Origin: a virus
Lineage: Duplodnaviria > Heunggongvirae > Uroviricota > Caudoviricetes
Virus record (IMG/VR): IMGVR_UViG_2651869748_000010
Location: 1-4,002 of that record
Length of the DNA stretch: 4,002 nt
Direction: 5' to 3' (one strand)
This document shows positions 3,001 through 4,002 of this stretch, piece after piece (within the stretch, counting starts at the first letter, position 1; each line of letters opens with the position of its first letter). The position numbers were made by a program.

Positions 3001-4002
3001 CGTTCGCAGTGTGAACACCGTTGGCAAATCGGCATTCGTGGAGGCTGTTGGTCAGCCGAGTGATGATGCATCCGGCTATCTGGATTTTTTCAAAGGCGAG
3101 ATAGGGAAAACCCATCTGGCTCAGGAGCTGTAGACGCAGATTGATAACGGTCAGCTTGCGCCTGACCTGGCTGAAATCAGGACGTCCATTACGGATGTCA
3201 GCAATGAAATCACGCAGACCGTCAATAAGAAACTGGAAGACCAGAGTGCGGCAATTCAGCAGATACAGAAGGTTCAGATTGATACAAATAATAACCTGAA
3301 CAGCATGTGGGCTGTGAAGCTGCAGCAGATGCAGGACGGACGCCTTTATATCGCGGGTATTGGTGCCGGTATTGAGAACACCCCTGACGGCATGCAGAGT
3401 CAGGTGCTGCTGGCGGCAGACAGGATTGCGATGATTAATCCTGCGAATGGCAACACAAAGCCGATGTTTGTTGGGCAGGGCGATCAGATATTCATGAACG
3501 ACGTGTTCCTGAAACGCCTGACGGCCCCCACCATTACCAGCGGTGGAAATCCACCGGCATTTTCCCTGACTCCGGACGGAAAGCTGACCGCTAAAAATGC
3601 GGATATCAGTGGCAGTGTGAATGCGAACGCCGGGACGCTCAACAATGTCACGGTAAATGAAAACTGTACGATTAAGGGCATGCTGGAGGCGACTCAGGTC
3701 AGAGGTGACTTCGTTAAAGCTGTATCCAAATCATTCCCGAAACAGGCTGGTACGTGGGGTAACACGGAAACACCAAACGGGACGGTTACAGTCACCATCA
3801 GCGATGATCATAACTTTGACCGTCAAATCATTATTCCGCCCATTATCTTTAACGGAATAGCGTATAGCTATCCGGGAAGTGGTAATAACCCGGGAGGTAC
3901 AAGATACACGGGTTATGGTTTTGAAGTTCGCAAAAACGGTGTATTAATCGCATCCAGAGAAACTAAAGGGGCCATTCCCGGTAGCTACAGTGCGGTTATT
4001 GA

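Follow-up and report, generated by a model that had tools for sequence, protein, structure and literature searches.

The J gene carried by this prophage fragment is very probably a nonsense pseudogene, in which a single G-to-A change confined to one lineage has interrupted the reading frame as part of ordinary prophage structural-gene decay. The window, by which we mean the whole stretch of DNA analyzed here (4002 bases), makes up all of contig JHSG01000084.1 (assembly GCA_001265875.1) and is a 4-kb piece of a lambdoid prophage in an Escherichia genome. The J frame, on the plus strand at 638-4000, was translated into 1121 codons with a single stop. Codons 1-831 (638..3130) give the product as written of this gene for the tip attachment protein, or central tail fiber; codon 832 is an amber TAG (3131..3133); and codons 833-1121 (3134..4002), identified from the open frame, Pfam matches, and DNA identity, are untranslated as written and cover the shaft, the beta-prism fiber, and most of the receptor-binding domain (RBD). 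The preliminary description of this DNA had reported one in-frame TAG at this site with 289 open codons after it, and both observations were reproduced, as the frame scan found a stop only at 3131, preceded by 831 codons. A J gene is expected to be one uninterrupted ORF of approximately 1130-1165 codons; the window J is broken by the TAG at codon 832. The frame itself continues past the end of the contig, which leaves out about 44 codons.

The window J is a member of the lambda gpJ family by descent and a pseudogene as written. All six gpJ Pfam domains were present, with E-values of 1e-14 to 1e-43. Four of them precede the stop (FNIII-A_GpJ, residues 86-207; Phage-tail_3, 330-498; Ig_J, 611-714; Ig_J_second, 716-818), and two follow it (Phage_Tail_Tip, 40-168, and Ig_GpJ_C, 197-288, numbered from the start of the downstream fragment). 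The intact J of strain a7 has the same six domains in one chain. The window J also matched the lambda gpJ chains 8iyk and 9e7m in the PDB, and lambda gpJ (PDB 8IYK, 8XCG, 9E7M) has the same domain series and occupies the same place after L, K, and I. Entry 9e7m, which comprises 835 residues, was considered as a natural short J and rejected, being a partial deposit of Ur-lambda gpJ in which residues 1-807 are modelled. The gene neighborhood was read from a contig of E. coli RN587/1 that is 99% identical to window 1-1463. On this contig the order is L, K, I, sodC on the opposite strand, and J, the neighbors being Phage_tail_L, a K-like JAB/NlpC_P60 protein, Lambda_tail_I, the inverted sodC, and J. 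From this order, the window is read as part of a lambdoid tail module, L-K-I-(sodC)-J, in which sodC, a gene for a periplasmic Cu,Zn superoxide dismutase (1..504, minus strand), is prophage cargo inserted in inverted orientation between the tail genes I and J.

Alignment to intact J homologues, which the preliminary description had proposed, showed that the replaced codon is TGG (Trp832) in otherwise identical flanks. In E. coli 2013C-4991 the gpJ gene is intact and agrees with window 3050-3250 at 200 of 201 bases, and the sole difference is TGG versus TAG. Strain a7, the best full-length match (97.7% over 638-4002), likewise has TGG at codon 832. When IMG/VR was queried with a 26-mer flanking the site, two variable bases being left free, at least 119 contigs matched, and TGG was found in all 121 occurrences among the matches listed. 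For a 66-mer around the site, 3,558 E. coli records matched in a search of 5,426 complete genomes, with a best identity of 98.5%, which corresponds to one mismatch; the exact TAG-bearing 66-mer was found in none of these 5,426 genomes. Exact-pattern scans for the TAG allele gave no match in the GTDB species representatives, IMG/VR, or the JGI metagenomes. It had been proposed, by reference to lambda gpJ, that a Leu or Glu codon was replaced, which was not borne out, since the codon in close relatives is Trp, one transition from TAG. The aligned codon of lambda is CTG (Leu), two changes from TAG; lambda was rejected as the relevant ancestor because it carries a different allele of this segment. 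The more general proposal that one base change could explain the stop holds, the change being the G-to-A transition at 3132 that turns TGG into TAG. Judged from these alignments, the stop is derived: a Trp codon has undergone a G-to-A transition at 3132, and one change separates the stop from the sense codon of close homologues. Among the three origins offered earlier (a recent nonsense mutation, dependence on a suppressor host, and a base-call error), a recent nonsense mutation is the one favored by the evidence.

The sequence beyond the stop has scarcely changed. Over its 869 bases it shares 99.8% identity with annotated, intact gpJ genes from six complete genomes, which supports the earlier view that the gene is interrupted by a single point mutation rather than decayed. 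Because this stretch is so close to intact J and carries Phage_Tail_Tip and Ig_GpJ_C, the 289 open codons cannot be put down to chance. The lesion is recent, given that the coding sequence past the stop has hardly departed from that of intact genes. The mutation is fixed in a small lineage. Between position 2811 and the stop, the window and strain a7 show zero differences apart from the nonsense change, and past the stop only two codons differ, V881I and D1078Y, both of them amino acid replacements. From 2811 to the contig end there are thus three protein-altering changes and no synonymous one, whereas upstream 15 of the 70 differing codons alter the amino acid. This pattern fits relaxed constraint, but as weak evidence, the numbers being too small to carry weight. 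V881I lies at window 3278-3280, and D1078Y at 3869-3871, the latter in the RBD. Against the stretch after the stop, the best of the complete E. coli genomes reached 99.8% with two mismatches, so at least one of V881I and D1078Y is unmatched among complete E. coli genomes.

The stop stands at the edge of a mosaic segment. Blockwise identity and DNA alignment both confirmed the earlier remark that similarity to lambda J drops here. In 40-residue blocks, the identity to lambda gpJ is 92-100% over residues 1-800, 55% over 801-840, 12% over 841-880, and 45% over 881-920, and it returns to 98% over 961-1000 before falling again in the RBD. Compared with lambda gpJ, the window J is interrupted at codon 832, and its helical-shaft segment is a different allele that is longer by an insertion of 28 residues. 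At the DNA level, mismatches to lambda-type alleles build up from about position 3000, and homology is gone after a shared GGAGCTG ending at 3130. BLAST alignments of the window with the sodC-linked J loci of other strains (L208-L211), drawn from IMG/VR pattern matches as sodC-J prophage relatives, end at 3130 and resume at 3346 or 3457, and the multiple alignment with lambda and a7 places the left break directly after 3130. The mosaic boundary between the two allele types was therefore set by BLAST and multiple alignment at 3000..3130 (plus strand), and the TAG is the first codon of the block that is nonhomologous to lambda-type alleles. The central segment of J (window approximately 3000-3460) exists as two sharply different alleles between shared flanks, a shorter lambda type and the type of the window and a7 with 28 additional residues. 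Since the sodC-linked J of the other strains is of the lambda type, the sodC prophages are themselves mosaic here. The RBD of the window (3700-4002) is 98-100% identical to that of strain a7 and only 20-52% identical to that of lambda. Given this low identity to lambda's domain, the receptor of window-type J is probably other than LamB.

How far these features could account for the stop itself was weighed together with the quality of the base call. One reading is that the TAG arose in sequencing or assembly, so that the gene is in truth intact, with G at 3132. The window is a short 4-kb contig of a repeat-broken draft assembly, it starts in a C12 homopolymer, and matching E. coli genomes have a median of 2-3 J-like places each, copies of which could have been mis-collapsed. 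Against this, the site of base 3132 is outside any homopolymer, and independent data reproduced the identical 831-residue product, which is encoded by three contigs, each assembled separately, that together cover five samples (WGS sets JHSG, JHSY, and JHSA; assemblies GCA_001265875.1, GCA_001266215.1, and GCA_001265755.1). These contigs have different ends, and one of them carries an unrelated base difference at window position 38. A collapse of paralogues would also need one copy with TAG, and none was present in the other collections searched. The base-call error allowed for in the preliminary description is accordingly very unlikely. The accession sets JHSG, JHSY, and JHSA are adjacent, so the isolates probably belong to a single project and may be a single clone; the three assemblies confirm the base and say little on how long the allele has persisted. 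Another reading, which develops the earlier suggestion that the stop may mark a recombination seam, is that the TAG is the scar of a junction at which an N-terminal part resembling lambda was joined to another central and distal segment. The seam is real, homology to lambda-type alleles stops directly before the TAG, and the GC content of this part of the gene is lower. However, the joint with TGG occurs in annotated intact gpJ genes in approximately 3,540 of the 5,426 complete E. coli genomes, where it is the commoner allele, and it is the same base for base in these and in every viral match listed above. A joint so widely shared with TGG did not create the stop. The single-base difference from 2013C-4991 across this region argues that the joint long predates the stop, and reversion of all the TGG alleles from a TAG ancestor is implausible given their number and diversity. 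A junction scar has next to no probability. The comparison indicates instead that the joint is old and shared while the stop is private, their adjacency being coincidental. The AT-richness noted earlier after the stop was likewise correct in part: the GC content does fall, from approximately 0.63 to approximately 0.49 and to 0.465 at 3101-3300, but the fall begins at about 2800, some 330 bases before the stop.

Other readings accept the TAG and suppose that the distal part of J is still made. Siphophages such as T5 encode the hub, the fiber, and the receptor-binding protein separately, and a functional two-gene J could consist of a hub (residues 1-831) and a separately initiated fiber and receptor-binding part that assemble noncovalently. 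The break does fall at a domain border, between FNIII-2 and the shaft, and the gene caller does call an ORF at 3305..4000, with a product of 232 residues. Its start, the first in-frame ATG past the stop (3305..3307, plus strand), had been described as lacking a Shine-Dalgarno sequence, which made re-initiation look unlikely, and the 20 bases upstream, CAAATAATAACCTGAACAGC, indeed contain no such motif. In-frame starts past the stop were listed at 3305 (ATG), 3314 (GTG), 3329 (ATG), and 3392 (ATG), and a Shine-Dalgarno-like sequence was absent before every one of them. Only the gene caller treats the ATG at 3305 as a start; we do not regard it as a genuine restart, and a product beginning there would be without the first 57 residues of the shaft. 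No close homologue was seen to end at this point: the E. coli and phage records among the matches listed carry a single full-length J CDS over the site, and the 831-residue form is present on only 3 contigs of a cluster of 34,633 members. Two genes in place of one are extremely unlikely. It is also decidedly unlikely, if less so, that the stop is bypassed by an amber-suppressor tRNA of the host or prophage, or by natural UAG read-through, and that the phage is viable. The fully open and nearly unchanged downstream frame would suit such a bypass, but a recent mutation predicts it equally. Suppressor-dependent amber alleles of lambda J are known as laboratory tools, whereas amber suppressors are rare in natural Escherichia isolates. 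No tRNA gene was detected in the 4-kb window by ARAGORN, and no Rfam family matched within it. Directly downstream of the stop, the RNA has a modestly more stable fold than shuffled sequences (minimum free energy, -33.4 versus -26.3 kcal/mol; z = -2.3). The relatives, however, have a sense codon at the site, TGG in every one examined, and conservation of the stop among homologues was not seen in any collection searched, so a programmed read-through signal is not credible. Basal read-through of UAG would yield a small fraction of full-length J, and as J is trimeric, a low level of it would seldom give a trimer in which all chains are full length. We therefore retain the recent nonsense mutation as the explanation of the TAG.

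For the function of J, the position of the stop matters. J is an essential gene of lambda by classical genetics, and from this essentiality together with the domain architecture the truncated J is not expected to support infection. Lambda gpJ consists of hub domains, FNIII-1 and FNIII-2, a helical shaft, a beta-prism, and an RBD (PMC11101478); the names of the last three domains are taken from that work. Codon 832 lies just past FNIII-2, at the beginning of the helical shaft and thus at a structural domain border. The earlier claim that the product would be without its receptor-recognition end is supported, as Pfam places the fiber and receptor-binding domains after the stop. In a host with no amber suppressor, translation would end after the second FNIII/Ig domain. 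The 831-residue product would retain the baseplate-hub and FNIII parts of gpJ and would lose the alpha-helical shaft, whose role is to clamp the FNIII trimer, together with the beta-prism fiber and the RBD. Particles with such a truncated J would be expected neither to bind a receptor nor to trigger DNA ejection, and the prophage would be defective for infectious virions unless J were supplied or repaired by a co-resident lambdoid prophage. In principle such rescue, whether through recombination or through complementation, is plausible. Matching genomes have a median of two or three J-like places, and the window contig breaks off within the 3' part of J. A different view of the same product is that the truncation is maintained and not merely tolerated. 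With its receptor-binding fiber disabled, the prophage might be locked in and its sodC kept in the lineage, or a hub-only J might nucleate fiber-less tail-like particles, or particles might borrow the J fiber of a co-resident prophage with a changed host range. The one observation in favor of this view is that the break falls at a domain border, and we assign it scant probability. Decay of a structural gene by point mutation remains the preferred account.

Comparable cases are familiar. An amber codon in lambda J makes tail function depend on suppression, and the laboratory Jam alleles of lambda are of this type. The Jam alleles were laboratory-selected on suppressor hosts, whereas the allele in the window is natural and resides in a prophage, in draft genomes that give no sign of a suppressor. 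In laboratory lambda, the stf frameshift is likewise a small mutation that splits a tail-fiber gene while both halves stay recognizable, and the split is visible in the lambda annotation as orf-401 and orf-314. The side tail fiber is dispensable for plaque formation (PMC11101478). The stf lesion is thus a frameshift in a dispensable fiber, and the lesion in the window J is a nonsense substitution in an essential gene. Also comparable are the defective lambdoid prophages of pathogenic E. coli, such as the prophage pool of O157 Sakai, which likewise combine cargo genes with structural genes carrying point lesions. Nothing essential distinguishes the window from these, and it is one more instance, with a rare sodC allele. 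Similar lesions were also seen in the loci that we retrieved, namely, a frameshifted minor tail protein L in 2013C-4991 and tail-fiber pseudogenes with internal stops in a7. The J lesion is therefore nothing new in kind and belongs to a known category of prophage decay. An annotation of the window should show J as one pseudogene with an internal stop, rather than two genes, and should class the prophage as probably unable to produce infectious particles, which bears on whether phage-borne spread of sodC can still occur. The case also shows that a stop located exactly at a mosaic boundary can be a coincidence.

Some minor features of the J region were recorded as well. An antisense ORF of 625 codons (1238-3115, minus strand) is contained entirely in J and reaches almost to the stop site. 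Such an ORF probably arises incidentally from the way codons are used in a GC-rich gene. Together with two other small ORFs, it had no Pfam match and was treated as spurious. A terminator-like hairpin with a T run (ATCCGGCTATCTGGAT TTTTTC) occurs inside J at window 3070-3095, approximately 40 bases before the stop. In the promoter and terminator scan around the stop site, the counts were at chance level, with one terminator-like site found versus 0.5 expected, and the hairpin is probably meaningless.

The cargo gene next to J varies in ways of its own. Window 1-504 (minus strand) comprises most of sodC, and its translation shares 99% identity with the SodC of E. coli RN587/1. No megablast match to sodC was found in the 5,426 complete E. 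coli genomes. The 90% cluster of this SodC has 60 members, mostly from Escherichia albertii with some from E. coli, and the next relatives are at most 73% identical; among the matches listed from the GTDB representatives, relatives have at most 66% identity and are mostly from Pseudomonas. The gene contains two homopolymer tracts whose length varies among assemblies, switching the frame at both gene ends. The one near the start, at window 493-499, is T7 on the plus strand and A7 in the sodC sense, with the ATG at 504-502. A tract of seven A's puts this ATG in a different frame from the SodC ORF, while in relatives whose tract has eight, the translation gives MIKKILAVTALLSGAVMA, a normal signal peptide. 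A7 is present in each of the three TAG-lineage contigs. A 157-residue form of SodC that begins at an internal Met and is without the signal peptide was found on at least 53 contigs, including complete E. albertii chromosomes. The A7 tract is either a second lesion in this prophage or a slippage-prone tract. The tract near the other end, at window 15-26, is C12 on the plus strand and G12 in the sodC sense, and the GGGG motif close to the C-terminus of SodC is translated from it. In related contigs the tract is 14 or 15 G's long, and variants in the SodC cluster end in ...GGGAQDWHAE, ...GGGGAQDWHAE, or ...GGGGRKTGMRNN instead of ...GGGGARLACGIIK, so these ends represent frameshifts that remove a conserved Cys. 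The variation of the sodC tracts may reflect real hypermutability or phase variation, or homopolymer sequencing error. All three TAG-lineage contigs begin at or next to the G12 tract, indicating that this tract also breaks assemblies.
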